Virus record (IMG/VR): IMGVR_UViG_3300044796_000056
Coordinates: 1-64,000 of that record
DNA from: a virus
Length of the DNA: 64,000 bases
Direction: 5' to 3' (one strand)
The notes below the pieces were generated by a model. The model was not told the DNA's origin, did not search any database, and was given only the letters and a program-made list of their open reading frames with translations. Numbering within the stretch: the first letter of the stretch is position 1; every line of letters begins with the position of its first letter. This document shows, piece after piece, positions 10,540-37,197 of the stretch. The translations under genes were made by a program, and so were the position numbers.

Positions 10540-11562
10540 TGGTTGAGGTAGCGGCACAAACCGCACCTGAACCTTCGATGGGGTCGTCAGAGAACCGCAC
10601 TAGAAGGTCGAACAGGATGTTCGATAGTCGAAACCGGGAGTCACCAACAAGGTGACGTTGACGACGCAACTCATGGGCCCTCTCCCATGCCAGGCACGCG
10701 GTCACTCTACCACAGAACCGCTGGAACAAGATTTCTTTTGATACGGTCAGCGTCCTCTCAACATGGACTAGCGTTTGGTTGTAAAGCCATCGATGACTCC
10801 GGATTACGTAACCGGAACATATTCTTCAATACATATGGGTGGGCAACGACCACCGCCGAAAATGCCAGGCTAATGTTGTTGAACTGTCTTTAAGTGTCCG
10901 TCTAGATAACGGTAACACCAAGACTCCGGATCAGTAACCGGAAATTATCTTCTGGGTTGCCTCCGCCGCCAACTTCTCTGGTCCATCCGCCAAAGGGTGG
11001 CACTGCTTGACAAAATTATATCCGCAGTGAAAGTGAGGAAATATTCCGATGGCTAACGCTGTCGTGACCAACAGGCCGGAAACGGTAAGCGTTGGTCTAG
11101 CCGTAAAGGTAGAAGTAAGAGCCAAGTGGATTGCCACCTTGAGGCTCATGAGCACTGCTGAGTGAGGCAACGTTGAGTTGCACCAGCACTCTTTAAGTAG
11201 GGTAGAGTGACATACTTGCCTGGTCGGATGATACGTGAGTAGGGTTGCAAACCGGAAACGTATCAGCGTGTGAAAATCATCGCCGTGCGGGACACCGAAA
11301 TGTCCCAGTCATTCAAGGTTTACTGGACCGGCTGCAACTGGTCCAGTAGAAGTCAGGCACGGCAAAGACTAAGCTTGCAGGTTGATGTCGAAACCGAGTA
11401 TGGTCGTCTAGTGGATAGGACGCTCCCGTTAAGGGGGAAACGAGTGTTCGAATCACTCTCATGCGTTGTCCTGACTTAAATTATCGAAGTGGGTTCAACT
11501 CCTACGGGTGCCCGGTGGCTAGCGTACATCGGCGAAACGATGTGACAGCCGGAGAGACGGCA
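10540..11562 (+). ncRNA. large ornate structured RNA, GOLLD-like
   Basis: ~1 kb without credible ORF after promoter 10506-10531; long-range helix 10690-10711 with 11201-11223; E-loop/GNRA hairpins; directly precedes the tRNA array. Confidence 0.65.
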
Positions 11563-11571
11563 AAGATTTAT

Positions 11572-11646
11572 TCCGACTGACGCGCAAGGTGTGCGGTGCC
11601 GCTGTTAACGGCCTGTGGATAGGTTCGATTCCTATAGTCGGAGCCA
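11572..11646 (+). tRNA. tRNA-Asn(GTT)
   Basis: Cloverleaf, loop CTGTTAA, CCA. Confidence 0.92.
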
Positions 11647-11650
11647 ATTT

Positions 11651-11726
11651 GGGTTTATAGCACAACGGCCAATGCATCCGGCTCTTAACCGGTAAGATCA
11701 GGGTTCGAATCCCTGTAAACCCACCA
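11651..11726 (+). tRNA. tRNA-Lys(CTT)
   Basis: Loop CTCTTAA, CCA. Confidence 0.95.
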
Positions 11727-11732
11727 GAAGAT

Positions 11733-11786
11733 TGATGTGTTGACCTTACGTCGCCGGTTGCGGAATGACGGGTCTAGACATCACCA
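11733..11786 (+). ncRNA. CCA-terminated hairpin RNA
   Basis: TGATGT/ACATCA stem plus CCA; internal GACC/GGTC and CGTC/GACG stems. Confidence 0.45.
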
Positions 11787-11835
11787 CGTCGAGTCGTGGC
11801 GTTTCGCGCAACAACGAAAGAGCGCGCTTGAATTC

Positions 11836-11909
11836 GGGCGGTTAGTATAGCGGGATTATGCCTGGCTTGCATCCAGGTGACAGGGGTTCGACTCCCCTAC
11901 TGTCCACCA
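11836..11909 (+). tRNA. tRNA-Ala(TGC)
   Basis: Loop CTTGCAT, G3-U70, CCA. Confidence 0.95.
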
Positions 11910-11914
11910 ATCCA

Positions 11915-11948
11915 TGGGCGAAGCGGCGAAAGCCTTAGTAGTCCACCA
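11915..11948 (+). ncRNA. 34-nt CCA-terminated minihelix
   Basis: TGGGC/GTCCA stem, GGC-GAAA-GCC, CCA end. Confidence 0.45.
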
Positions 11949-11954
11949 GTTTAT

Positions 11955-12035
11955 GTCCTGTCACACTCGGCGAGTGGTTGGCGTGCAGACGTGTACGTCA
12001 GACGAAGAAGGCTTCATTAACCTCGCAGGACTCCA
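11955..12035 (+). ncRNA. tRNA-like RNA without an anticodon loop
   Basis: GTCCTG/CAGGAC plus TCCA, D-like hairpin, 9-bp central stem with tetraloop, degenerate T arm. Confidence 0.55.
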
Positions 12036-12042
12036 AGTTTAC

Positions 12043-12117
12043 GCGGATGTGGCAGAATGGTAATGCCCAACTTTGCCAAAGTTGTGCTCGAGGGTTCGAT
12101 TCCCTTCGTCCGCTCCA
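12043..12117 (+). tRNA. tRNA-Gly(GCC)
   Basis: Loop TTGCCAA, TCCA. Confidence 0.93.
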
Positions 12118-12121
12118 TTTC

Positions 12122-12197
12122 GGGTTATTAGCTCAGAGGCAGAGCATCCGGCTTTTAACCGGTAAGGTCGAGATATCGTAATTCTCATAACCCACCA
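12122..12197 (+). tRNA. tRNA-Lys(TTT)
   Basis: Loop CTTTTAA, atypical T loop ATCGTAA, CCA. Confidence 0.9.
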
Positions 12198-12204
12198 AGT
12201 TTAT

Positions 12205-12279
12205 GGCGTGTCTATGGTTGAGGTTGGATCGCACCCAGCAGGACTTGAAGCAAGGAGTTAGTAGCTCTCCACGCCACCA
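12205..12279 (+). ncRNA. D-armless tRNA-like RNA (CGC in a 7-nt loop)
   Basis: GGCGTG/CACGCC plus ACCA; GTTGG-ATCGCAC-CCAGC arm. Confidence 0.5.
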
Positions 12280-12286
12280 GTATTAT

Positions 12287-12360
12287 TCACTGATCGTCCA
12301 GCGGCAGGACATCTGGCTCTGACCCAGAGAACCTAGGTTCGAATCCTAGTCGGTGATCCA
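12287..12360 (+). tRNA. tRNA-Gln(CTG)
   Basis: Loop CTCTGAC, CCA. Confidence 0.93.
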
Positions 12361-12374
12361 GACTATATAATCTC

Positions 12375-12677
12375 ATGCGCAAAGTAAGATTTCCTACTGA
12401 TATTGAACGTGCAGCCTACAGACGCAAAGTCGTCGCCCGTTTCAAACGGTTGAAAGGCTGTACTGACTGTGGCTACAAAGCCAATTCAGCAGCGTTAGAA
12501 TTTGATCATGTCGACGAAACTACCAAGACCAAAACGGTAGGATCGTTGATGTACAACGGATGGAAAGACATCAAGAATGAAATAGCAAAATGCGTCGTAC
12601 GATGTGCGAATTGCCACGCTATCAGAACACTTGAAAGAAACTACCGTAAGAAAGATTATGCCCGAGTGGTGGAATAG
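12375..12677 (+). CDS. small HNH endonuclease
   Basis: CTDC...LEFDH...CANCH; 3' end overlaps tRNA-Leu. Confidence 0.85.
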   Translation: MRKVRFPTDIERAAYRRKVVARFKRLKGCTDCGYKANSAALEFDHVDETTKTKTVGSLMYNGWKDIKNEIAKCVVRCANCHAIRTLERNYRKKDYARVVE

Positions 12678-12742
12678 GCAGACACACCGCGCTTAGAACG
12701 CGACGCGAAAGCATGCAGGTTCGATTCCTGTCTCGGGTACCA
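12660..12742 (+). tRNA. tRNA-Leu(TAG)
   Basis: Loop CTTAGAA, long V arm, CCA. Confidence 0.93.
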
Positions 12743-12748
12743 AGTTTT

Positions 12749-12808
12749 GCTAGCAGAACGTCCTCTCACACCAGGCAATTAGAGCCGAAATGTCAAGACG
12801 CTGCGGCT
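12749..12808 (+). ncRNA. repeated pseudoknot RNA motif, copy 1
   Basis: 36-nt core shared with copy 2, different but paired outer stem. Confidence 0.65.
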
Positions 12809-12814
12809 ACCGTT

Positions 12815-12891
12815 TGCGGGTTGGAGAAGTGGCTATCTCGCTTGCCTCATAAGCAAGAGATCCTGGGTTCGAGTCCCAGACTCCGCTACCA
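12815..12891 (+). tRNA. tRNA-Met(CAT), initiator-like acceptor end
   Basis: Loop CTCATAA, unpaired 1-72, CCA. Confidence 0.88.
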
Positions 12892-12998
12892 AATTTGTGG
12901 ACTATTCATCGGGCGAGAGCATCCGCTGTAACAGGCGCGTGATGCCAGTGCAGGTGCTCAATCCATCGTTCTGCCTGACGATACAGGCTTCTTATTCT

Positions 12999-13073
12999 GC
13001 CTTCAAAGCGTAAAAGGTGACGCGGTGGTTTTGTAATCCACAGAACACGGTTCGATTCCGTGTGAAGGCTCCA
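12999..13073 (+). tRNA. tRNA-Thr(TGT)
   Basis: Loop TTTGTAA, CCA. Confidence 0.9.
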
Positions 13074-13083
13074 AGTTTAGTTG

Positions 13084-13150
13084 CCAGTTCTACCGGTCTC
13101 CGAGCCGGTCACCCGACACTAGTGTGGCAGGGTGCACAAATACTGGACCA
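13084..13150 (+). ncRNA. CCA-terminated three-way-junction RNA
   Basis: CCAGT/ACTGG plus ACCA; ACCGG/CCGGT and CACCC/GGGTG arms. Confidence 0.5.
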
Positions 13151-13163
13151 ATTCAAAGTTTAT

Positions 13164-13249
13164 GCGTCGTTGTGTGAGTGGTTAAAACAATCTGTCTGTA
13201 AAACAGATCTCTTCGGGGTACGGTGGTTCGAATCCATCACGGCGCACCA
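13164..13249 (+). tRNA. tRNA-Tyr(GTA)
   Basis: Loop CTGTAAA, long V arm, CCA. Confidence 0.93.
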
Positions 13250-13259
13250 ATTTCAATAT

Positions 13260-13338
13260 GGCACCTTAGCATAGCCTGGCTTAATGCGCTACCCTGTCAC
13301 GGTAGAGATCACGGGTTCGAATCCCGTAGGTGTCGCCA
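13260..13338 (+). tRNA. tRNA-Asp(GTC)
   Basis: Loop CTGTCAC, GCCA. Confidence 0.93.
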
Positions 13339-13343
13339 ATTAT

Positions 13344-13418
13344 GCCTCGTTAGCTCAGCGATAGAGCGCCTCGTTTACACCGAGGATGTCGGCGGTTTGA
13401 TCCCGTCACGAGGTACCA
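13344..13418 (+). tRNA. tRNA-Val(TAC)
   Basis: Loop TTTACAC, CCA. Confidence 0.93.
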
Positions 13419-13424
13419 GTTTAT

Positions 13425-13499
13425 GCCTCACTCGTCCAAAGGCAAGGACGGCTGCCTGATTAGCGGCAAATCGCGGTTCGAGTCCGTGGTGAGGTACCA
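13425..13499 (+). tRNA. tRNA-Ile(GAT)
   Basis: Loop CTGATTA, CCA. Confidence 0.9.
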
Positions 13500-13505
13500 A
13501 TCAAT

Positions 13506-13579
13506 GTCCGTCAAGTGTTACGGTAGCACAGCTGTCTCCAAAACAGCGGGCCGGGGTTCGACTCCCTGGATGGACGCCA
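13506..13579 (+). tRNA. tRNA-Trp(CCA)
   Basis: Loop CTCCAAA, GCCA. Confidence 0.92.
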
Positions 13580-13583
13580 AATT

Positions 13584-13658
13584 GCCCTTATAGCATAACG
13601 GATAGTGTACAGTCCTGCGAAGACTGTGATCCAGGTTCGATTCCTGGTATGGGCGCCA
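13584..13658 (+). tRNA. tRNA-Arg(GCG)
   Basis: Loop CTGCGAA, GCCA. Confidence 0.9.
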
Positions 13659-13666
13659 ATTTGTAA

Positions 13667-13724
13667 AGCCGGAACAGGCCTCTCGCACCAGGCAATTAGA
13701 GCCAAAATGCCAAGCCTCCCGGCT
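13667..13724 (+). ncRNA. repeated pseudoknot RNA motif, copy 2
   Basis: AGCCGG/CCGGCT and AGGC/GCCT stems around the shared core. Confidence 0.65.
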
Positions 13725-13733
13725 AATTTATTT

Positions 13734-13807
13734 CAGGGTAAGGTGTTACGGTAGCATCCGAGTTTTGGAAACTTGTGGCCGGAGTTCAACTCTCCGTACC
13801 CTGACCA
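13734..13807 (+). tRNA. tRNA-Pro(TGG)
   Basis: Loop TTTGGAA, C1-G72, ACCA. Confidence 0.88.
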
Positions 13808-13813
13808 ATTTAT

Positions 13814-13887
13814 GCGGGATAAGTGTTTGGGTTACACGATAGTCTTCCAAACTATCATAGCGGGTTCGAGTCCCGCACTCCGCTCCA
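13814..13887 (+). tRNA. tRNA-Gly(TCC)
   Basis: Loop CTTCCAA, TCCA. Confidence 0.88.
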
Positions 13888-13894
13888 AGTTTAT

Positions 13895-13968
13895 GCTTCT
13901 TTCACACAACTGAATCAGTGTGTAAACCATGTGAGCGCGCAAGCGGGTCGTTGGTAGAGGAGCTCCCA
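13895..13968 (+). ncRNA. acceptor-stem-closed structured RNA
   Basis: GCTTCTTT/AGAGGAGC stem, CACAC/GTGTG arm, GCAA tetraloop arm. Confidence 0.4.
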
Positions 13969-13982
13969 ACCTCCTTTATTAT

Positions 13983-14057
13983 TCACTGATCGTCTAATTG
14001 GCAGGACGCGAGGCTTTGACCCTCTGAATCTAGGTTCGAGTCCTAGTCGGTGATCCA
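13983..14057 (+). tRNA. tRNA-Gln(TTG)
   Basis: Loop CTTTGAC, CCA. Confidence 0.92.
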
Positions 14058-14063
14058 GTTTTT

Positions 14064-14139
14064 GCTCCTATAGAATAGAGGCCCAGTTCGCGACCCTCTC
14101 AAGGTTGACACACCGGTTCGAATCCGGTTAGGAGCGCCA
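14064..14139 (+). tRNA. tRNA-Glu(CTC)
   Basis: Loop CTCTCAA, GCCA. Confidence 0.9.
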
Positions 14140-14146
14140 AATTATT

Positions 14147-14223
14147 CGGAGTGTAGCTCAGCCTGGTAGAGCGCGTGCCTTGGGCGCATGAGGTCGCAGG
14201 TTCGATTCCTGTCTCTCCGACCA
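14147..14223 (+). tRNA. tRNA-Pro(TGG), second copy
   Basis: Loop CTTGGGC, canonical CGGAGTG start, ACCA. Confidence 0.92.
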
Positions 14224-14346
14224 TCTTTAAGTTGACGAGAGTTGGCCGTGTCATGAGCGGCATCGCCTCAAGCTGGTACTGTCATGGGTATCACGGCGGA
14301 CTACCGAATATTCCCGGAACCGTTCAACTTAATCTTTTCAGTTTAT

Positions 14347-14423
14347 GCACTTATCGTCTAGTGGCTCAGGATACTCGCCTTTCAAGCGGGATGACTGGGG
14401 TTCGAATCCCCATAGGTGCGCCA
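14347..14423 (+). tRNA. tRNA-Glu(TTC)
   Basis: Loop CTTTCAA, GCCA. Confidence 0.93.
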
Positions 14424-14428
14424 ATTAT

Positions 14429-14503
14429 GCCTCTGAAGCTCAATGGAAGAGCAGCACGCTTCGAACGTGTTGGGTGCAGGTTCGAGTCCTGTCAGGGGTG
14501 CCA
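14429..14503 (+). tRNA. tRNA-Arg(TCG)
   Basis: Loop CTTCGAA, GCCA. Confidence 0.92.
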
Positions 14504-14580
14504 AATATGGACAAGGGTCCCGGTGAGTGTTCCACTTCACTGTACAACTAGAAGCCTGATGTATTTCAGGCAAGAATTAT

Positions 14581-14657
14581 GTCCTCTTAGCTCAACTGGA
14601 TAGAGCGCCGAGCTTCTACCTCGGATGTTACGGGTTCGAGTCCTGTAGAGGATGCCA
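14581..14657 (+). tRNA. tRNA-Arg(TCT)
   Basis: Loop CTTCTAC, GCCA. Confidence 0.94.
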
Positions 14658-14661
14658 TTTA

Positions 14662-14769
14662 TGACCGGTCTTGAGATGTAGGACACTACGATTTGATAGA
14701 CGGATAAGTTCAATCTTGCCGCATACATATCAGCAAGTGGATTCGCGACTCGCGCGAACACGGTCACCA
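14662..14769 (+). ncRNA. 108-nt CCA-terminated structured RNA
   Basis: TGACCG/CGGTCA plus CCA; internal T-loop-like AAG-TTCAAT-CTT. Confidence 0.5.
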
Positions 14770-14776
14770 AGTTTAT

Positions 14777-14852
14777 TCTCCTGTACGCCAATGCCAGAGC
14801 GGCTGCCCAATACGGCAGTGGAAGTGAAGGTACAGTCCTTCCGGGAGAGCCA
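14777..14852 (+). tRNA. non-canonical or pseudo tRNA (6-nt anticodon and T loops)
   Basis: TCTCCTG/CGGGAGA plus GCCA; CTGCC-CAATAC-GGCAG; GAAGG-TACAGT-CCTTC. Confidence 0.6.
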
Positions 14853-14857
14853 ATTAC

Positions 14858-14933
14858 GTCCTTGTAGCTCAGCGGATAGAGCGGCGATCTCCTACATCGC
14901 AGGTCGTGGGCTCGACTCCCACCAAGGACTCCA
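14858..14933 (+). tRNA. tRNA-Arg(CCT)
   Basis: Loop CTCCTAC, CCA. Confidence 0.92.
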
Positions 14934-15092
14934 AGTTGCTCCACATTCCGGCCGGAGTGTACCCAATCCGCTAACGCAGAACGGGGCAATGCCAGGGAGC
15001 ATTCAGTTTAGTCAGTACCGGTCACACGTCACCTGAAGACATAGGGCAGACCGGCTAAGAGATAGCATGCCAGACTACTGACATTTGATTAT

Positions 15093-15168
15093 GGAGTTTG
15101 TCAGCCAGCGGTTAGGCTCCCTCTCTGTGAAAGAGGTAACTCGGGTTCGAATCCCGACATTCTCCCCA
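15093..15168 (+). tRNA. tRNA-His(GTG)
   Basis: Loop CTGTGAA, G-1/C73, CCA. Confidence 0.85.
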
Positions 15169-15218
15169 ATAATTTTACCTTTCAATATATAAAAGTATCA
15201 TCACTCTTTGAGGGTACT

Positions 15219-15929
15219 TTGATGCGCAACCCGCTACTAGCTGCTTTGATGGCTCTGTTGTTTGGTTGTACGCAAAGTAATTACGAACAGTCACTGACAG
15301 CAATTCGACTAGACATGGATGACGGTAGCATTTGCTCCGGCACCATAGTGGGTCCTCACGTCCTATTGACAGCGGCGCACTGCCTTGAGCGAGAACCTAT
15401 CATCAATCTGGATAAGATCCAAGATGATCAACAGGGTCCTCCTGCTCCACCAAAGAAACCCGAACCAAAGAAGCCTAAGAAACCATTCAACTTCTTGGAC
15501 TTGATCACGATTCCTCCTCCATTCACGTCAGTGGCCATCAATGGCCGTGAAACAAAGATTCTGTCTATTGTGCCTGATCACAACGACCATGTCTTAGTCG
15601 AGGTAGACTACACGTTCAATCACTATGCCTCCTTGGCGGTCAACCGACCAGCTGTGGGTGGCAAAGTTCATTACTGGGGCAACCCTGCCGGTAAGCTCAT
15701 GGTCTACCGGGAAGGCTACGTCAGCTTCTACGATAAGACGATGATGGAAATGGATGTCAACGGTTTCTTCGGTGACAGTGGTTCCGGTATCTTCAATGAA
15801 GCCGGTCAGATTGTAGGAGTCATGAACGTCATAGACTTCGATCATCACCACGGTTTACAATTTTCATTGATGGGTTCTGAGCAGCTAGAATTTACTCCAC
15901 AACAGTTGGATATGCTCGGGATTCAATAA
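15219..15929 (+). CDS. trypsin-like serine protease, lipoprotein
   Basis: Lipobox LFGC; LTAAHC and GDSGS catalytic motifs. Confidence 0.88.
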   Translation: MMRNPLLAALMALLFGCTQSNYEQSLTAIRLDMDDGSICSGTIVGPHVLLTAAHCLEREPIINLDKIQDDQQGPPAPPKKPEPKKPKKPFNFLDLITIPPPFTSVAINGRETKILSIVPDHNDHVLVEVDYTFNHYASLAVNRPAVGGKVHYWGNPAGKLMVYREGYVSFYDKTMMEMDVNGFFGDSGSGIFNEAGQIVGVMNVIDFDHHHGLQFSLMGSEQLEFTPQQLDMLGIQ

Positions 15930-15936
15930 AGTATAT

Positions 15937-16028
15937 GGATGGTTGGCAGAGTCCGGCTTATTGCACTAGTCTTGAAAACTAGCAGACCAGAAATGGTCAC
16001 GTGGGTTCAAATCCTACACCATCCGCCA
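15937..16028 (+). tRNA. tRNA-Ser(TGA)
   Basis: Loop CTTGAAA, long V arm, GCCA. Confidence 0.94.
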
Positions 16029-16110
16029 GAGCAAGGGAGACATGTTGGTTCGACTCCAACCGTGAACAGTACGGCTGCACGCAGGATATCTGGAACATCC
16101 GCTCCCGCTT
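16029..16110 (+). ncRNA. T-arm-first (circularly permuted) tRNA-like RNA, YrlA-like topology
   Basis: GGGAG/CTCCC closing stem; perfect T arm GTTGG-TTCGACT-CCAAC at the 5' side. Confidence 0.45.
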
Positions 16111-16178
16111 GATCTAGACGCTCTCACTGCTTAGCGATACAGAGCAGTTGACCGGGAAGAAAGGTTCCCACGAATTAT

Positions 16179-16268
16179 GGGTGATTGGCCGAGCGGTTTA
16201 AGGCACCTGCCTAGAAAGCAGAAGAGGGCTAACGTCCTCCGTGGGTTCGAATCCTACATCACCCGCCA
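16179..16268 (+). tRNA. tRNA-Ser(AGA)
   Basis: Loop CTAGAAA, long V arm, G73, CCA. Confidence 0.88.
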
Positions 16269-16282
16269 GATTAAATGATTTT

Positions 16283-16359
16283 GCCCCACTGACGGAATTG
16301 GCATACGTACCACACTCAAAACGTGGGTTTTCAGGGTTCGACTCCCTGGTAGGGCACCA
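16283..16359 (+). tRNA. tRNA-Leu(CAA), short variable loop
   Basis: Loop CTCAAAA, ACCA. Confidence 0.85.
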
Positions 16360-16518
16360 GATGTCTTGATGTTGATGTTTACAAGGTGACTTATGCGATA
16401 GCAATACGACCCTTAATGAAATTTTACTTATAGAAAGTTTATAGATTGATTTTACATGTAATGGCGCAGAAAGTTGCCGGTCTCATAAACTGGCGATCAA
16501 TGGGCCATGAAGTGTAAC

Positions 16519-16591
16519 GACTTGCCAATTGTTAAGGCAGCATGCCCGGCTTTAAACCGGGAAGAGTTGGTTCGATTCCAACGACAAGTCA
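16519..16591 (+). tRNA. tRNA-like gene with TTA (ochre) anticodon
   Basis: CCCGG-CTTTAAA-CCGGG, perfect T arm, GACTTG/CAAGTC; no encoded CCA. Confidence 0.6.
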
Positions 16592-16744
16592 TAGAAGATT
16601 GTATGCATTCCTAATGTCCGAGTCTGGTTACAGGTATACAATCTACAGGTCTTAAGGATACGAGCAGGCAACGTTGTTCTCCTGCTACGTTTAGGAACAC
16701 GTCCTTACGGTGTGCTGGCCACATAAAAGGTTCCTACTTATTAC

Positions 16745-16819
16745 GGGTTCTTAGCTGAGACGGATTAGCGCTGGTCTGAAAAGCCGGAGAGGAAGGATCG
16801 TTACCTTCAGTGCCCACCA
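16745..16819 (+). tRNA. tRNA-Phe(GAA)
   Basis: Loop CTGAAAA, atypical T loop, ACCA. Confidence 0.88.
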
Positions 16820-16903
16820 ATTTCGATTTTGGGTTCGACACCCAACGTTCAAGGACACCCGCAAGGGTGACTTACACTTGCGGCAGGAGCAATCATTTAT
16901 TAC

Positions 16904-16981
16904 GGTGATGTGGCGGAGATGGCTCATCGCGCTTTCCTCATAAGAAAGAGAACACTGGTTCGAGTCCAGTTATCACCACCA
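16904..16981 (+). tRNA. tRNA-Met(CAT) (elongator or Ile2)
   Basis: Loop CTCATAA, ACCA. Confidence 0.9.
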
Positions 16982-17039
16982 AGTTTAGGTCTGCGTTAGA
17001 CCGTAAGGTCTCTATCTGGTTGACATGGGACGCAGTAAT

Positions 17040-17123
17040 CGCTAACACCAAAGGAACCGCTAAGAACCGCAATCGGTTCTTGATGAGCAATCATCAGTCG
17101 GTAACGAACCCCATTAGCGTCCA
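17040..17123 (+). ncRNA. CCA-terminated structured RNA
   Basis: CGCTAA/TTAGCG plus TCCA; AAGAACCG/CGGTTCTT and TGATGA/TCATCA arms. Confidence 0.5.
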
Positions 17124-17133
17124 ATCTTTATAT

Positions 17134-17228
17134 GCTCCATAGCTCAGGTGAGCGGGTGCGTTTTATAAGCGCGCGAGAGTGGCCGGACTGGCTGCAACGG
17201 GCAGGTTCGAGTCCTGTATGGAGTACCA
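17134..17228 (+). tRNA. tRNA-Ile(TAT) with long variable arm and short D arm
   Basis: GCTCCAT/ATGGAGT, loop TTTATAA, ~25-nt extra arm, ACCA. Confidence 0.8.
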
Positions 17229-17232
17229 TCAT

Positions 17233-17310
17233 GCCTCTGTGGCGAAACTGGCAAACGCGGCGAACTTAAAATCCGCTCCATTGTGGGTTCGACTCCCTCC
17301 TGAGGCACCA
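17233..17310 (+). tRNA. tRNA-Leu(TAA), short variable loop
   Basis: Loop CTTAAAA, ACCA. Confidence 0.85.
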
Positions 17311-17312
17311 TT

Positions 17313-17532
17313 TGATTGATCTCCCGGGATGTGCCGGGTGAAGATTCGGGTCGGCGAAAGCCGAGAGCGAGAGTGAGTGTAAGCCTGTAAGATCGGGTCA
17401 GCTGAGTACAGCACATGCTTCTAAAGAGTCGATGACAACTACCAGCGAAGACAGGGTCTTTGATACGCTGGGATACAAATCCTGAACTGTTGTCTAAAGC
17501 ACCACGAGCGGTAGTCCAATCCGCATCAATCA
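17313..17532 (+). ncRNA. 220-nt structured RNA of unknown class
   Basis: TGATTGAT/ATCAATCA closing helix filling an inter-tRNA gap; TCGGC-GAAA-GCCGA. Confidence 0.5.
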
Positions 17533-17540
17533 TCTTCTTC

Positions 17541-17614
17541 GACTGTATAGCTCAATGGTAGAGCAACGCCACGACACGGCGAAGACCAAGGCTCGATTCC
17601 TTGTACGGTCACCA
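17541..17614 (+). tRNA. tRNA-Val(GAC)
   Basis: Loop ACGACAC (non-U33), ACCA. Confidence 0.85.
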
Positions 17615-17616
17615 TA

Positions 17617-18144
17617 TCAATTCAAAGGCAATCCTCTTGACTTACGACCGTTGCCCCTATTCCTACCATGAGCAGTAGGAGTCATCGCGTGGCAATTAGG
17701 ACACAACAATCTAAGGTTTGATGGGAGATTATTCCCAGCATTCCCATCGATATGATCCAGTTCAAGTGGAATGGGTGATACTTTCCAATCTGTTAGAAGA
17801 CAGTCTTCACATTTATGTCCTCTCAAATCTATGAGATATCTTTTCAGATAATATCTATCGGTGTAGCTGCCAGAAAGTATTTTTTGCTCTCGATTATCAC
17901 GTATCTTTTCAAGGGTGAGTTTGTCTGATTTAGGCTTGCCTGTTCCTAATCTGTTATTGGTCAATTTGATAGCACAAGAATGAGAACAGAAAGTGTATTT
18001 CCTACGGTCATAATCTATCACCTTCCCACACCACTTACATAGTGTGGGATTTTCTAGATAGTGTTTTATATTCGCTGCTCGTTTTGCGTTGGATGTTGCT
18101 ATGGAGGCAGCGCCTCCCAATTTTCCCGCTTCTGATTTGTTCAT
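17617..18144 (-). CDS. HNH homing endonuclease
   Basis: CKWC/CSHSC, LELDHIDGN...NLRLLCPNCH; AT-rich and antisense to the array. Confidence 0.9.
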   Translation of the reverse strand: MNKSEAGKLGGAASIATSNAKRAANIKHYLENPTLCKWCGKVIDYDRRKYTFCSHSCAIKLTNNRLGTGKPKSDKLTLEKIRDNREQKILSGSYTDRYYLKRYLIDLRGHKCEDCLLTDWKVSPIPLELDHIDGNAGNNLPSNLRLLCPNCHAMTPTAHGRNRGNGRKSRGLPLN

Positions 18145-18146
18145 AT

Positions 18147-18220
18147 GCCCTTGTAGTCTAATGGTAAGACAGTTTCTTGGTAAGAAACAGTATTTAGTTC
18201 GATTCTAAACTAGGGCACCA
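18147..18220 (+). tRNA. tRNA-Thr(GGT)
   Basis: Loop TTGGTAA, ACCA. Confidence 0.88.
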
Positions 18221-18231
18221 TTATTCGTTCC

Positions 18232-18260
18232 TCACAGTTCGATTCTGTGTTGGGGCTCCA
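18232..18260 (+). pseudogene. orphan 3' half of a tRNA
   Basis: CACAG-TTCGATT-CTGTG-TTGGGGC-TCCA with no matching 5' half. Confidence 0.6.
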
Positions 18261-18383
18261 GTTTCGATGATTTGTCAAGTCCCATATTTCGTAGGAGTGT
18301 CTTCTAACGAGGATTCTCGAGACCAAACAAGCCATCGATCTCAATTGTTTACTCTTACAGTTAGATAGAGTATGATAGTATAC

Positions 18384-18539
18384 ATGAAGACGGTCGCTAT
18401 GGTGATTGTGTTCGCAGCCTTAACGGGCTGCGCCAATGCCCGTATCTATGCGTTTTGTGATAAACGTATCGACAAGGACCAGAAGACACATTATCATTGC
18501 GACAAACAACATATGATTGGTTTTGGCTATAAATTCTGA
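18384..18539 (+). CDS. small lipoprotein (51 aa, not in ORF track)
   Basis: MKTVAMVIVFAALTGC lipobox; ATG just after promoter. Confidence 0.6.
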   Translation: MKTVAMVIVFAALTGCANARIYAFCDKRIDKDQKTHYHCDKQHMIGFGYKF

Positions 18540-18547
18540 GGTGTGAC

Positions 18548-18877
18548 TTGAGCAACATTGTACTATTGAAATTGATCAGCGACGTTGATTTGGTCGCACA
18601 ACGAGTTTCCGAGCCGAACGTAGCACCGCTGAAGGTTCAGCATTGCGTTCAGCTATTGATGCAGCAGGATCCTCAATCCGGTAAGATTGGTTTCGTACCA
18701 ATGCCGTGGGGAGTGCTGGCAGGTTCTGATTTTATCTTCACGTTCGATGATACGAAGCTGGTCTATGGACTAGAGGCTCCGGCCGAACTTGAAGCACTGT
18801 ATCGTAAAATTCATGGTATGGTGGAATTGCCTTCCAAGGGACTGTTGATCCCAGGACAAGGTCCAAGCAAGAGATAA
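18548..18877 (+). CDS. conserved T4-like hypothetical protein
   Basis: GAGGTG RBS; LLKL..G/D and F.PW pattern. Confidence 0.6.
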   Translation: MSNIVLLKLISDVDLVAQRVSEPNVAPLKVQHCVQLLMQQDPQSGKIGFVPMPWGVLAGSDFIFTFDDTKLVYGLEAPAELEALYRKIHGMVELPSKGLLIPGQGPSKR

Positions 18878-18883
18878 GTTTAT

Positions 18884-18961
18884 GTTGTGGTGGCTGAGCG
18901 GCCCAAAGCATCTGTCTGCAAAACAGTAACACCATCGGTTCAAATCCGATCCACAACTCCA
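18884..18961 (+). tRNA. tRNA-Cys(GCA)
   Basis: Loop CTGCAAA, U73, CCA. Confidence 0.92.
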
Positions 18962-19013
18962 AATTCGCGCTGCGTGCTAAATAATATCATGATGTTACAT
19001 TGATAGGTGATTT

Positions 19014-19619
19014 ATGTCAGCGATGGATGTGTTGGTTGTCGATAAGGGTGGAAACCCTCGGGACTGGTTGAACTACCAGGACACCGTTAAGGCTTACGCA
19101 GAGGATAGGGTTATTTGTAACCTAGGATCTCACGTGCGCACTTATGTCGGTGGCCGCAATTCAACTGGCAAGCTCTCTAAGATTGAGATCTCATCTATTG
19201 TTATGGTCACCGGCCCAGTGCTTGGTGAGAAGTTCAAGTTCCGTGTAACCAAGTTCGCTGAGCGTCCTATTCTGTACGCTCGTGACTGCTACATGTGCGC
19301 TTACTGTGGTATCGTCCATAAGGACACGAAGTCAATTGATCTTCATTTGACCATTGATCATGTGATGCCTCGCTCACGCGGTGGTGATCACACTTGGACG
19401 AATACGGTAACGTCGTGCGCTGCTTGTAACCACGGTAAGGCAGACAGGACTCCGGAGGAAGCAGGAATGCAGCTTCTGTATGTTCCTTACGCACCTAACC
19501 TTCAGGAGAAGCTACTTCTGAAGAACCGCAAGGTGAAGGCCGATCAGATGGATTACTTGTTGTCTGTCATTCCGAAGACTTCAAGGATTCACCAGAACGT
19601 TCAACATTTGCGTAATTGA
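19014..19619 (+). CDS. HNH endonuclease (McrA-like)
   Basis: RDCYMCAYCG, TIDHVMPRSRGG..W.N.V.SC..CN. Confidence 0.9.
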   Translation: MSAMDVLVVDKGGNPRDWLNYQDTVKAYAEDRVICNLGSHVRTYVGGRNSTGKLSKIEISSIVMVTGPVLGEKFKFRVTKFAERPILYARDCYMCAYCGIVHKDTKSIDLHLTIDHVMPRSRGGDHTWTNTVTSCAACNHGKADRTPEEAGMQLLYVPYAPNLQEKLLLKNRKVKADQMDYLLSVIPKTSRIHQNVQHLRN

Positions 19620-19622
19620 TAT

Positions 19623-19712
19623 AGAAGGTTGCCAGAGTGGTCTAATGGCGCAGTTTGCTAAACTGATGGTTCCGAAAGGGGCACAAGGGTTCAAATCCCT
19701 TACCTTCTGCCA
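19623..19712 (+). tRNA. tRNA-Ser(GCT)
   Basis: Loop TTGCTAA, long V arm, GCCA. Confidence 0.94.
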
Positions 19713-20030
19713 GAGTTTCCGGTTAACCTCGTAAGAGGCCCAATCGGTTCGTTGAGTATAGAGGCTCAATGTTCAGGTATTGCAACCTGTGATAAGCCTT
19801 GGGACAAATAATGTCACTCCCGCCGTTGCTAAGTGGATAGGGCATAACAAACTCCGAGGATACATTTGATATGACGAGTAAAGAAGAGGTATGGGCCGAT
19901 CGTTGCTTCGTCATGATGGAGATAAGGAATCTTGTTCCACTACTCCAGGGAGAGCTCCTTGCCCGGTACAACGAGTTCCTTCTCAAGCCGATTGAGTACC
20001 GCAACTATATTCGTGAACTGGTGATACATT

Positions 20031-20498
20031 ATGACACGTGACGCACAAACAATCGCAAAAGAACTTCAAGAGATCGAACGCAAGAAGCGCGACCTTCAAG
20101 ATGAACAAACTAAGCTCTACTGGGCTTCCGAGCGCTTGAAGCGCCAAGCCAAGAAGAGCACATTGACGGCTGGTAGCTGGGTGAATGGCATAGGCCAGAT
20201 CATCACGACTGGAGATCTTTGTGTTGGTGTCACGGCTAACCGAGGAGCCAAAGTCACGGTTGGTACCTTTGCAGGATTCAGAGAACGTGGTGGCAAGGTC
20301 ACTTCAGTCAGTCTGAACATCATGAAGGAAGTCTATTACTACCAGACAACCGATGGTAAGCTTCACAAGCGATATCCTCTGGTTGATGGACGTAGGAACT
20401 ACAGCATCTCTTACTCCAGAATCAAGAAGCAAGAGATCCGCCGACAGTCATTCACACAGATGCGGGTTTACAAGATCCAACCGACGCAGACAGATTAA
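20031..20498 (+). CDS. hypothetical protein, paralog of 20846-21370
   Basis: Shared N.xG.II..GD motif. Confidence 0.6.
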   Translation: MTRDAQTIAKELQEIERKKRDLQDEQTKLYWASERLKRQAKKSTLTAGSWVNGIGQIITTGDLCVGVTANRGAKVTVGTFAGFRERGGKVTSVSLNIMKEVYYYQTTDGKLHKRYPLVDGRRNYSISYSRIKKQEIRRQSFTQMRVYKIQPTQTD

Positions 20499-20570
20499 CG
20501 CGGCTGGATTAGCAGCCAAACGGACGCCACACCGTCTGAGAGCCCAAGACCGGTTAAGGGTGCAGGAAAT

Positions 20571-20789
20571 GTGGCACTGATTCAACAAGTCGACCTAACG
20601 CGGCAGATAAGGATGTTTGTCGAGGAAGTTCGCGACTGGCGCAGAGGACGAGTAGGAGCGAAAGCGACAAACTACCGTGATACAGCCAGCAATCTAAACA
20701 GAACCAGGGAATCCTTTGCTTATTGGTTCGGGTTAGAGCACCCACTCAACGGAGTGGGATTGATCGAAAGGTCTTTAGGCAAATGTTAG
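20571..20789 (+). CDS. hypothetical protein
   Basis: AGGA RBS before GTG. Confidence 0.4.
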   Translation: MALIQQVDLTRQIRMFVEEVRDWRRGRVGAKATNYRDTASNLNRTRESFAYWFGLEHPLNGVGLIERSLGKC

Positions 20790-20845
20790 GATAGAACAGA
20801 ATCGCGGCTACGGACTTGTTGATAATTTATTAAGATGGAGTTAAT

Positions 20846-21370
20846 ATGGCATTGCGCAAACCAGTTGAACTTCCCTATGAGAATGATCTAGGTCACATCA
20901 TCAATGTTGGTGATAAGGTCTTGATCGTAACTACCGGCTACAGTCACAGCGTCTCGGTACGCATGGGCACCTACCTGGGCAAGATCCGCGACGACAAGGA
21001 CAGCGATTACGAATCTGGTTGTGTCGTGATGGTAGATGAAGAGCGCAGGGTTCTCCGTCACAAGGAAACCAATGAGGAGCTCGACTGGGAGAAACACATC
21101 GAACCGGCTACCGGTCCACGTCCTGAGTATCCCACACTACACCATGTGCAATGGCTGAGCAGAGTTCGTCTGACTGATGAACAGAACAAAGAGAATGCTG
21201 AACGCCAGGCAGCGCACAAGGTTGCCACCGATCTGTATAATGCTAAGCAGGTGGAAGTGATGAAGAACTTCCACCACGTCTATGAACCATACACTCGGCG
21301 CACAACTTTGCAGCGGAACCGGATCTATCCAGTGAACATGGGTCTCAAAGAGTTCATCCGACAGATCTAA
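20846..21370 (+). CDS. hypothetical protein
   Basis: GGAG RBS; paralog of 20031-20498. Confidence 0.65.
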   Translation: MALRKPVELPYENDLGHIINVGDKVLIVTTGYSHSVSVRMGTYLGKIRDDKDSDYESGCVVMVDEERRVLRHKETNEELDWEKHIEPATGPRPEYPTLHHVQWLSRVRLTDEQNKENAERQAAHKVATDLYNAKQVEVMKNFHHVYEPYTRRTTLQRNRIYPVNMGLKEFIRQI

Positions 21371-21385
21371 TAAATATCTGATAAC

Positions 21386-21460
21386 GCTCTGTAAGTGTTA
21401 CCGGTAGCACAGTTGTTTCGTAAGCAACAGGCTAGGGTTCGACTCCCTAACAGAGCACCA
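21386..21460 (+). tRNA. tRNA-Thr(CGT)
   Basis: Loop TTCGTAA, ACCA; TAAATA late-type motif upstream. Confidence 0.92.
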
Positions 21461-37121: not shown

Positions 37122-37197
37122 CGATGTGTAGCTCAAACTGGCTAGAGCAGGATCTCTAAAATCCAAGATCAGGGTTCGATGCCCTGCACAACGGCCA
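37122..37197 (+). tRNA. amber suppressor-type tRNA (CTA)
   Basis: GGAT-CTCTAAA-ATCC arm, canonical D and T arms, GCCA; follows CTAAATA. Confidence 0.85.

Follow-up and report, generated by a model that had tools for sequence, protein, structure and literature searches.

What occupies the gaps between the tRNA genes of a T4-like phage from peat? The window analyzed here (64,000 nucleotides, positions 1 to 64,000 of IMG/VR record IMGVR_UViG_3300044796_000056) contains T4-type baseplate genes and a tRNA operon of about 10 kb. All tRNAs of this array (at least 36) have an encoded CCA, each is preceded by the leader (A/G)TTTAT or ATTAT, and together they already cover 20 of 20 amino acids; six or seven extra, non-decoding genes lie among them. 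Our analysis leans towards reading these units as non-decoding "tRNA-end" RNA genes of the polycistronic tRNA operon, derived from tRNAs and keeping their processing ends. The units and the weaker candidates are as follows.

11734..11786, + strand: 53-nt mini unit; 5-6 bp end helix, A and CCA around one irregular hairpin, beginning 7 nt past the CCA of tRNA-Lys(ctt)
11915..11948, + strand: doubtful 34-nt minihelix of 4-5 bp only (z -1.45), with 3' end CCACCA and no clean discriminator; in permafrost run X4, one contig links 11901 to 11941 and so skips most of it
11955..12035, + strand: 81-nt unit; TTTAT leader, 7-bp end helix, T and CCA; three interior hairpins with 3-4 nt loops in a cloverleaf-like outline, the central 10-bp stem capped by a tetraloop
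12205..12279, + strand: 75-nt unit filling the entire Lys(ttt)-Gln(ctg) gap; TTTAT leader, 6-bp end helix, A and CCA (minimum free energy [MFE] z 0.06)
13084..13150, + strand: 67-nt unit; 5-bp end helix, A and CCA (z -1.65), offset leader (agtttagttg), internal 6-bp stem with a 6-nt loop
13895..13968, + strand: weak unit; TTTAT leader, 7-bp end helix with three G-U pairs, 3' end T-CCCA
14663..14769, + strand: 107-nt unit; TTTAT leader, 5-bp end helix, A and CCA (z -2.4); three internal branches, with AGTTTAT and then the next unit on the 3' side
14777..14852, + strand: 76-nt tRNA-derived unit; TTTAT leader, cloverleaf outline, 7-bp acceptor, G and CCA; the "anticodon" loop has 6 nt and the D and T loops are degenerate; tRNA-Arg(cct) 5 nt downstream
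14937..15005, + strand: doubtful unit; 6-bp end helix, 3' end TTCA, without CCA
17040..17123, + strand: 84-nt unit; 6-bp end helix, T and CCA, two tetraloop hairpins (interior z -2.9), tRNA-Ile(tat) 10 nt downstream; with a different 5' strand, at 16994, the unit would span 130 nt and take up the whole gap

The sequence-only reading had described CCA-terminated units in tRNA-like slots, and this stands for seven of them, which combine an acceptor-type helix of 5-7 bp with one further base and CCA. Four (11955, 12205, 14663 and 14777) start exactly after TTTAT and are separated by 5-7 nt from the tRNA or unit that follows; three (11734, 13084 and 17040) are docked on at least one side. It does not stand for 11915..11948 with its short helix, for 13895..13968, which ends in TCCCA outside the NCCA register, or for 14937..15005. 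The unit first placed at 14662-14769 keeps its leader, 5-bp helix, A and CCA with a start shifted by 1 nt.

Six of seven pairs plus NCCA, taken as the sole criterion, gave 571 matches on the plus strand and 579 on the minus strand of the whole window; because this background of bare stems is so high, the significance of the pattern lies in register alone. At a fixed register, five pairs are expected by chance in about 0.7% of cases. A helix of at least 5 bp closed by NCCA was found at 4 of 11 gap positions preceded by the tRNA-type leader, against 1.2% of random ones (binomial p = 6e-6). GTTTAT itself occurs nine times in the array, and eight of these copies directly adjoin a tRNA (four) or a unit (four). 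Across the 19 gaps, units were docked on the 5' side in 6, on the 3' side in 7 and on both in 3 (shuffle means 2.1, 1.5 and 0.28), and docking exceeded that on the reverse strand as well as that in shuffles. Such units exactly filled 17 of 162 gaps in 34 phage arrays, where 0.45 were expected, an enrichment of about 40-fold over shuffles; roughly half of these are non-decoding, and about half have proper 7-nt anticodon loops. Together with the peat phage units, this excess suggests a general, under-annotated feature of phage tRNA operons.

None of the units in the window is a decoding tRNA. No unit matched the Rfam tRNA model (RF00005) at E <= 1, and a 5-bp hairpin with a 7-nt loop, U33 and R37 at the anticodon position is absent from all of them (loops of 3-6 nt), in agreement with the original observation that a normal cloverleaf and anticodon are missing. 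ARAGORN called no unit by default; with -ps85 it called 14777..14852 alone among them, as tRNA-??? (at) with a 6-nt anticodon loop, and its mitochondrial mode and thresholds of 60-70% did not recover the units at their coordinates. A T-arm scan of the window (5 bp + TTCRANN) returned 30 sites; each belongs to a tRNA, to the tmRNA or to one of four orphan fragments, and the units contain none. The interiors are mutually unrelated, as had been claimed (mean pairwise z 0.1), and no common body motif was found. Their description as well paired was overstated: MFE z-scores of the units (+0.06 to -4.0) resemble those of true tRNAs (mean -1.6), the only outliers in stability being 17040..17123 (-4.0) and 11734..11786 (-2.6), and interior-only scores lie mostly between -1 and +0.8. 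Further "closed stems" proposed in the array are mostly unremarkable (z -0.3 to -2.25).

One unit, 14777..14852, is clearly a tRNA that has diverged. In a related IMG/VR phage, its ortholog (L037:11432-11514) likewise lies 5' of tRNA-Arg(cct); conservation between the two covers the leader, the acceptor, the 3' T-stem, the CCA and the spacer but not the interior, which has diverged. A tRNA-type D arm (GCTC/GAGC) and T arm (T-loop TCCGAAT) are retained in the L037 copy, a hairpin with a 6-nt loop occupies the anticodon position in both, and acceptor pair 5 shows a compensatory change (C-G to T-A). Residual similarity to tRNAs reaches z 3.4 in this unit and ranges from -1.6 to 1.7 in the others. 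A near-identical relative was identified for one other unit: 11955..12035 is kept in a permafrost relative (X4) with six substitutions and one deletion, its end helix and CCA unchanged, two of the six substitutions disrupting predicted pairs. Because homologs of the remaining units were not found in four related arrays (L001, L037, L089 and L092), the case for selection on those units consists of within-genome statistics.

The array also holds remnants of tRNA genes:

12941..12991, + strand: probable decayed paralog of the 14777..14852 body, without end helix or CCA (33/51 identical; z 4.1 among 120 pairs)
16044..16060, + strand: orphan T-arm (5 bp + TTCGACT) found in the T-arm scan, tRNA debris
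18233..18262, + strand: tRNA truncated to its 3' half, with T-arm, 3' strand of the acceptor, T and CCA but no 5' half

Orphans resembling the T-arm at 16044..16060 are also present at 11489-11505 and 16829-16845.

The orphan T-arms, the truncated 3' half and the decayed copy of the 14777 body show that tRNA genes have come and gone within the array. The window also offers a staged series, from intact tRNA through a tRNA frame with a closed loop and units with ends only to fragments, that illustrates how such RNAs can derive from tRNA genes. For annotation, the units are neither tRNAs nor empty spacers.

We propose that each unit retains a tRNA processing module consisting of a U-rich leader (U at -1), an acceptor-type helix of 5-7 bp from +1, one discriminator base, the encoded CCA and a spacer of 4-7 nt before the next gene, and that its body is no longer an anticodon-bearing cloverleaf. 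The units would have arisen by duplication and divergence of the array's tRNA genes, as the comparison shows for 14777..14852 and as is probable for the others. Host RNase P would be expected to cleave at +1 of each unit, and 3' exonucleases would then trim back to the CCA, since the next gene begins within a few bases; the predicted products are CCA-ended RNAs of 50-110 nt, released alongside the tRNAs. Bacterial RNase P is reported to cut model substrates other than tRNAs, with cleavage dependent on a 3' RCCA (PMC12710915). The sequence-only reading had suggested that the phage uses tRNA processing to release non-tRNA RNAs, a suggestion consistent with the shared leader, the helix at +1, the discriminator, the CCA, the tiling with tRNA genes and the T4 and T5 precedents. 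Because the visible selection acts on the ends, the minimum role would be in cis: a dead but cleavable tRNA gene would spare its upstream neighbor a long structured 3' trailer. A role in cis only leaves the retention of whole units, rather than their simple deletion, unexplained, and an additional role in trans is possible by analogy with the abundant T4 species 1/2 and T5 RNAI RNAs.

Those RNAs also decide how new the units are. [quoted passage not shown] In T5 (AY692264), six annotated non-tRNA RNAs lie between tRNAs (RNAI, RNAIII, RNA1, RNA2H, RNAIV and rna2), tiled on one strand among tRNA and HNH endonuclease genes. RNAI (107 nt), folded here, is closed by a 5-bp end helix, has G as discriminator before its encoded CCA, and its body is not a cloverleaf; units 11955, 12205, 14663 and 17040 share this architecture. 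T4 species 1/2 (rnaC and rnaD) are likewise small RNAs, encoded where the tRNA cluster of this T4-type myovirus ends, and derive from the primary transcript of the tRNAs. The units of the window have two features of this class, namely the same-strand position in the cluster, tiled with tRNA genes, and the terminal helix with NCCA on a non-cloverleaf body as in RNAI. The set is therefore real but belongs to the long-known kind of T4/T5 small stable RNAs, not to the new system that had been proposed.

Differences remain: T4 has two such genes and the window six or seven; rnaC, RNA1 and rna2 have retained a canonical T-arm, absent from the units of the window; and the T5 record lists its RNAs as RNA genes, whereas the units are known here from sequence alone. 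In an nhmmer search of the window with eight T4/T5 RNAs (including rnaC and rnaD), no unit was matched at E <= 10. Canonical tRNAs (RF00005) resemble the units in operon position, leader, acceptor helix, discriminator and CCA, and one unit is of tRNA descent, but the units lack an anticodon loop and the conserved D/T-loop elbow. Plant mitochondrial t-elements, the mascRNA of MALAT1 and the tRNA-like genes of murine gammaherpesvirus 68 are tRNA-shaped modules for RNase P and 3' cutting that excise or punctuate non-tRNA RNA, and their products are CCA-ended and outside decoding. They differ in their eukaryotic or organellar settings and in the post-transcriptional addition of CCA, and are not known to be related by descent to the units.

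Small stable RNAs of the T4 and T5 tRNA clusters have been known, without a function, for some fifty years, and a trans-acting role has to be weighed. The units might form a panel of stable RNAs freed by tRNA processing that serve as decoys or sponges for readers of the acceptor end or CCA (anticodon nucleases, CCA-modifying toxins, synthetases or RelA), a reading we regard as unlikely. With tRNA-like ends on bodies lacking an anticodon loop, such RNAs would evade anticodon nucleases and still offer a CCA; by the same token, they would not titrate anticodon nucleases. Several distinct units in a single array and a closed central hairpin of unit 14777 maintained in two diverged phages are consistent with decoys, as are the accumulation in vivo of the T4 and T5 stable RNAs (PMC9697503) and the known use of phage tRNAs against tRNA-targeting defenses, including a suggested decoy role for a phage tRNA-Tyr (PMC13096335). 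Against this, the units are not conserved across related arrays, share no body motif and mostly have no excess fold stability, and no linked defense-related or RNA-repair gene was found in 76 kb of a record that is about 44% complete. Still less probable is the generalization that large phage tRNA operons carry fast-turnover, non-decoding RNAs with acceptor/CCA ends that are selected in trans, for example by occupying host enzymes or defense toxins that target tRNA 3' ends; if true, it would give the T4 species 1/2 and T5 RNAI class a job. The units are relevant to testing phage tRNA-end mimics against tRNA-targeting defenses.

Neutral debris, that is, dead tRNA genes and chance hairpins under zero selection whose ends survive because internal replacements were recent, is in our view a doubtful account of the set. 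The array visibly holds debris, the units are lineage-specific, bare stems with NCCA have a high background, and the weak units 11915, 13895 and 14937 have the look of such debris. The sequence-only reading had itself set "unconserved decayed tRNAs" against its proposal, and this is partly borne out by the one diverged tRNA, the debris and the units without homologs in four arrays. The retained end helices nevertheless speak against plain neutral decay, which would not keep them, given how rarely five pairs fall in fixed register by chance. Six unit bodies have no residual tRNA similarity, which implies age, yet their end helices of 5-7 bp, leaders and CCA stay in perfect register, so that uniform decay of all parts is not seen; the compensatory change in the 14777 acceptor and the enrichment across 34 arrays point the same way. 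An interior recently replaced by insertion or deletion, with ends intact by descent, could imitate such selection.

It is very unlikely that some units are functional tRNAs of a highly non-canonical form, lacking arms or carrying odd T-loops, that gene finders overlook. ARAGORN did miss genes of this sort in related arrays: CAT-anticodon genes in L001 and L037 and, at L037:10529-10619, a Tyr-like one with loop CTGTAAA and T-loop ATCGTTA. About half of the docked units elsewhere have 7-nt anticodon loops, and a 5-bp stem with loop ATCGCAC is possible in unit 12205, but that hairpin is off-register, no unit has the required hairpin at the anticodon position, relaxed searches miss the units and all amino acids are already served.

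Two further features lie in the array:

12375..12677, + strand: HNH homing endonuclease gene (PHROG HNH, E 6e-25)
16126..16169, + strand: two-hairpin element without CCA, directly 5' of tRNA-Ser(aga)

The stretch 12361-12652, which spans most of the HNH gene, is replaced by AGTTTAT in one contig of run X3. The sole RNA run containing the region has it as contigs of 3.6-13.4 kb, which may be DNA. The two-hairpin element is kept in metagenome locus L001, with compensatory changes in 3 of its 12 pairs.

The window is part of a virus record of 76 kb whose source is a peat metagenome assembly. Baseplate genes of T4 type are present in the record, and the gp6-like wedge protein has 39% identity to the counterpart in Pelagibacter phage HTVC008M. 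Searches of the GenBank phage collection (megablast and blastn) found no close relatives, the matches being to tRNAs only. The tRNA array extends on one strand from 11397 to 21460 and comprises 36 tRNAs predicted by ARAGORN, with three further tRNA-like genes recognized by Rfam or relaxed ARAGORN; the genes for an HNH endonuclease and for a trypsin-like protease interrupt it, as do a few small ORFs. CCA is encoded in all array tRNAs, (A/G)TTTAT or ATTAT precedes each of them, and neighbouring tRNAs lie 4-10 nt apart. A scan of the array for promoters and terminators stayed at the level of shuffled sequence.

Several tRNA genes are unusual. Two tRNA-like genes (11397-11469 and 16519-16593; 32.7 and 31.8 bits with Rfam) have the anticodon TTA, which would read UAA; both are called by relaxed ARAGORN, and in both the CCA is not encoded and the usual leader is absent. 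At 37122-37197 lies a tRNA with the anticodon CTA, and two tRNA-Leu genes (16283-16359 and 17233-17310) are only 77-78 nt long, without a long variable arm. T-loops of ATCGTTA, ATCGTAA, or AGCGTTA replace TTCGAAT in several tRNAs of the window (12122-12197 and 16745-16819) and of other phages (L037:10529-10619; L029, L071, and others); ARAGORN overlooks some of these genes, among them a Tyr-like gene in L037 and genes with a CAT anticodon in L001 and L037.

Interspersed with the tRNAs are CCA-ended units, graded as follows.

11955-12035, secure unit
12205-12279, secure unit
14663-14769, secure unit (start first placed at 14662)
14777-14852, secure unit
11734-11786, probable unit
13084-13150, probable unit
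17040-17123, probable unit
11915-11948, weak unit
13895-13968, weak unit, ending TCCCA
14937-15005, weak unit, ending TTCA

These units are not decoding tRNAs. The Rfam tRNA model found nothing in them at E<=1, and ARAGORN at default settings called none; at the 85% threshold it called 14777-14852 only, with a two-base "anticodon" reflecting a 6-nt loop, and neither lower thresholds nor mitochondrial mode brought up the other units at their positions. Hairpin loops in the units measure 3-6 nt, the sole 7-nt candidate (ATCGCAC, in 12205-12279) being off register, and a TTCRANN-type T-arm is absent from every unit. Other phage arrays also include CCA-ended tRNA genes that are canonical except for an anticodon loop of 6 nt (L048:1897-1973, the same as L061:8677-8753; L076:874-948; L092:545-614).

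When folded, the listed units have an end helix of 5-7 bp, then one base and CCA. The window has 571 cases of six of seven pairs plus NCCA within 30-130 nt on its + strand and 579 on its - strand; because an end helix with NCCA is so common on both strands, the non-chance signal lies in register. Among 19 gaps of 30-260 nt, with docking defined as 3-14 nt from a tRNA CCA or from the next tRNA, units docked on the 5' side (after a tRNA CCA) in six, on the 3' side (CCA before the next tRNA) in seven, and on both in three, against dinucleotide-shuffle means of 2.1, 1.5, and 0.28 and reverse-strand counts of 2, 2, and 1, respectively. GTTTAT is eight times as dense in the array as in the rest of the window, and eight of its nine array occurrences abut the 5' terminus of a tRNA (four) or a unit (four). 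A helix of at least 5 bp closed by NCCA follows at 4 of 11 leader-preceded gap positions, compared with 1.2% of random gap positions (p=6e-6). The feature is judged real, and beyond chance, for six or seven of the proposed units; 11915-11948, 13895-13968, and 14937-15005 remain weak.

Fold z-scores of the units (+0.06 to -4.0) are similar to those of real tRNAs (mean -1.6), and the well-paired interiors originally described are borne out only in part, the two outliers being 17040-17123 (z -4.0) and 11734-11786 (z -2.6). The additional "closed stems" of the same reading score -0.3 to -2.25. Comparison of the unit interiors with each other bore out that they are unrelated.

The origin of one unit is indicated by a related locus. 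A 20-nt D-arm word of tRNA-Leu(caa), identical across otherwise diverse contigs, retrieved 58 IMG/VR loci (L020-L077), including L037; this locus is a true relative, which carries 30 tRNAs and shares with the window the HNH gene, the pseudoknot motif, and the non-coding region upstream. Its ortholog of 14777-14852 (L037:11432-11514) immediately precedes tRNA-Arg(cct), the position that the unit also has in the window, and was the sole find of an IMG/VR pattern scan with the 3' end of the unit. The leader, 5' acceptor strand, 3' T-stem, 3' acceptor strand, discriminator G, CCA, and ATTAC spacer are near-identical, and acceptor pair 5 changes from C-G to T-A in the L037 copy; the interiors have diverged and differ by an 8-nt indel. 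Since MAFFT misaligns them, seemingly compensatory changes in the central hairpin are given no weight. A D-arm (GCTC/GAGC) and a T-loop (TCCGAAT) persist in the L037 copy, and both copies have a hairpin with a 6-nt loop in the position of the anticodon arm. This comparison shows that 14777-14852 is a former tRNA gene in which decoding is gone and the ends are kept, with most elbow nucleotides lost in the window copy.

The other units have no residual similarity to any array tRNA and no homolog in L001, L037, L089, or L092. Across about 620 kb of phage arrays, nhmmer searches with every unit and gap matched only 14777-14852 (in L037), 16029-16178 (in L001), and the pseudoknot motif; a match of unit 14662 to L019 (E 0.01), a locus with no tRNAs at that place, was judged spurious. 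IMG/VR pattern scans with the Met-tRNA, unit 11955-12035, and an HNH-like ORF (19014-19619) gave nothing useful. The protease gene (15219-15929) had no IMG/VR match; as a query it retrieved 19 metagenome loci, of which L001 alone has a syntenic array. Unit 11955-12035 is present on a permafrost-run contig, where it differs by six substitutions and one deletion that leave the end helix and CCA untouched (two changes in loops, two pair-preserving, two breaking predicted pairs); this contig also joins across most of 11915-11948. Contigs of run X4 were not alignable around 11572-11830 and 13741-13860, which is not evidence of absence; the X2 metatranscriptome contains 99% of words as identical contigs of 13.4, 3.6, and 7.7 kb and informs neither transcription nor ends. 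Plain tRNA debris also occurs in the array (three orphan T-arms, and a 3' half tRNA with CCA and no 5' half), and 12941-12991 is probably a decayed copy of the 14777-14852 body.

If the bodies drifted beyond recognition while end helix, discriminator, CCA, and leader stayed in perfect register, selection would act on the unit ends. Bacterial RNase P and 3' trimming enzymes read tRNA ends. Since these are the parts that appear selected, the units are read as tRNA-derived "tRNA-end" RNAs, predicted to be excised still from the operon transcript. RNase P cleavage of non-tRNA substrates is reported to depend on RCCA (PMC12710915). A cis role would be the minimum selective reason for keeping the ends: where CCA is encoded and spacers measure 4-7 nt, RNase P cleavage of one gene would at the same time release the preceding tRNA at its 3' end, and a dead gene that escaped cleavage would burden its neighbour with a structured trailer of 80 nt. 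A role in trans may exist but is unsupported by these data, and the decoy function first suggested is speculation; unit bodies gave no antisense match above shuffles in the 76-kb phage genome. The 76 kb showed no gene for a CCA-adding enzyme, for Ro/TROVE, or for RtcB or other RNA repair, which is uninformative because the record is about 44% complete.

The units had been put forward as a candidate new system; they are instead new examples of a known, unexplained kind. At the end of the T4 tRNA cluster lie rnaD and rnaC (species 2 and species 1 RNAs), which share a 1.75-kb precursor with eight tRNAs (PMC2330249) and whose function is still unknown (PMC9697503); rnaC keeps a canonical T-arm, unlike the window units. 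A T5 record has six annotated non-tRNA RNAs (RNAIII, RNAI, RNA1, RNA2H, RNAIV, and rna2) tiled with tRNAs and HNH genes, and RNAI folds into a 5-bp end helix, G, and CCA around a non-cloverleaf body, the architecture of the window units. None of these T4 and T5 RNAs has sequence homology to the window, so the units belong to this kind and not to the T4 or T5 families. The gap-filling tRNA-end pattern is general across phage arrays: in 34 CCA-encoding arrays, 17 of 162 gaps were exactly filled by a unit (a helix of at least 6 bp plus NCCA, docked on both sides), whereas shuffles gave 0.45 and the reverse strand 2. Of the 17, about half are real non-canonical tRNAs missed by ARAGORN; the rest are non-decoding, some being mini units of 48-51 nt that resemble 11734-11786.

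Other elements accompany the array. A pseudoknot-type core of about 36 nt, which contains CACCAGGCAATTAGAGCC, closely follows two window tRNAs on their 3' side; its flanks covary, and Rfam has no match to it; an 18-nt conserved word from it (two gaps) retrieved four further IMG/VR loci. Its occurrences are listed here.

Window 12743-12815 and 13659-13733
L037:12468-12495
L089, L090, L091, and L092
L096-L100

The core is again beside tRNAs in four other IMG/VR contigs, and it occurs without a nearby tRNA in five bacterial or MAG contigs (Undibacterium, Cyanobacteriota, Erythrobacter). The HNH gene is polymorphic: peat run X3 has a contig in which 12361-12652 is replaced by AGTTTAT, the standard 7-nt spacer, between tRNA-Gln and tRNA-Leu, as expected of a homing element. 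The region 20582-20822 had no match to Rfam RNase P at E<=10; 20782-20821 is conserved in the L092 contig, and 20602 is joined to 20781 in contigs from runs X4 and X6. A two-hairpin element without CCA lies directly 5' of tRNA-Ser in the window (16126-16169) and in L001 (980-1016); between these diverged phages, 3 of 12 pairs are changed on both sides and the 9-nt loop TAGCGAYAC is kept.
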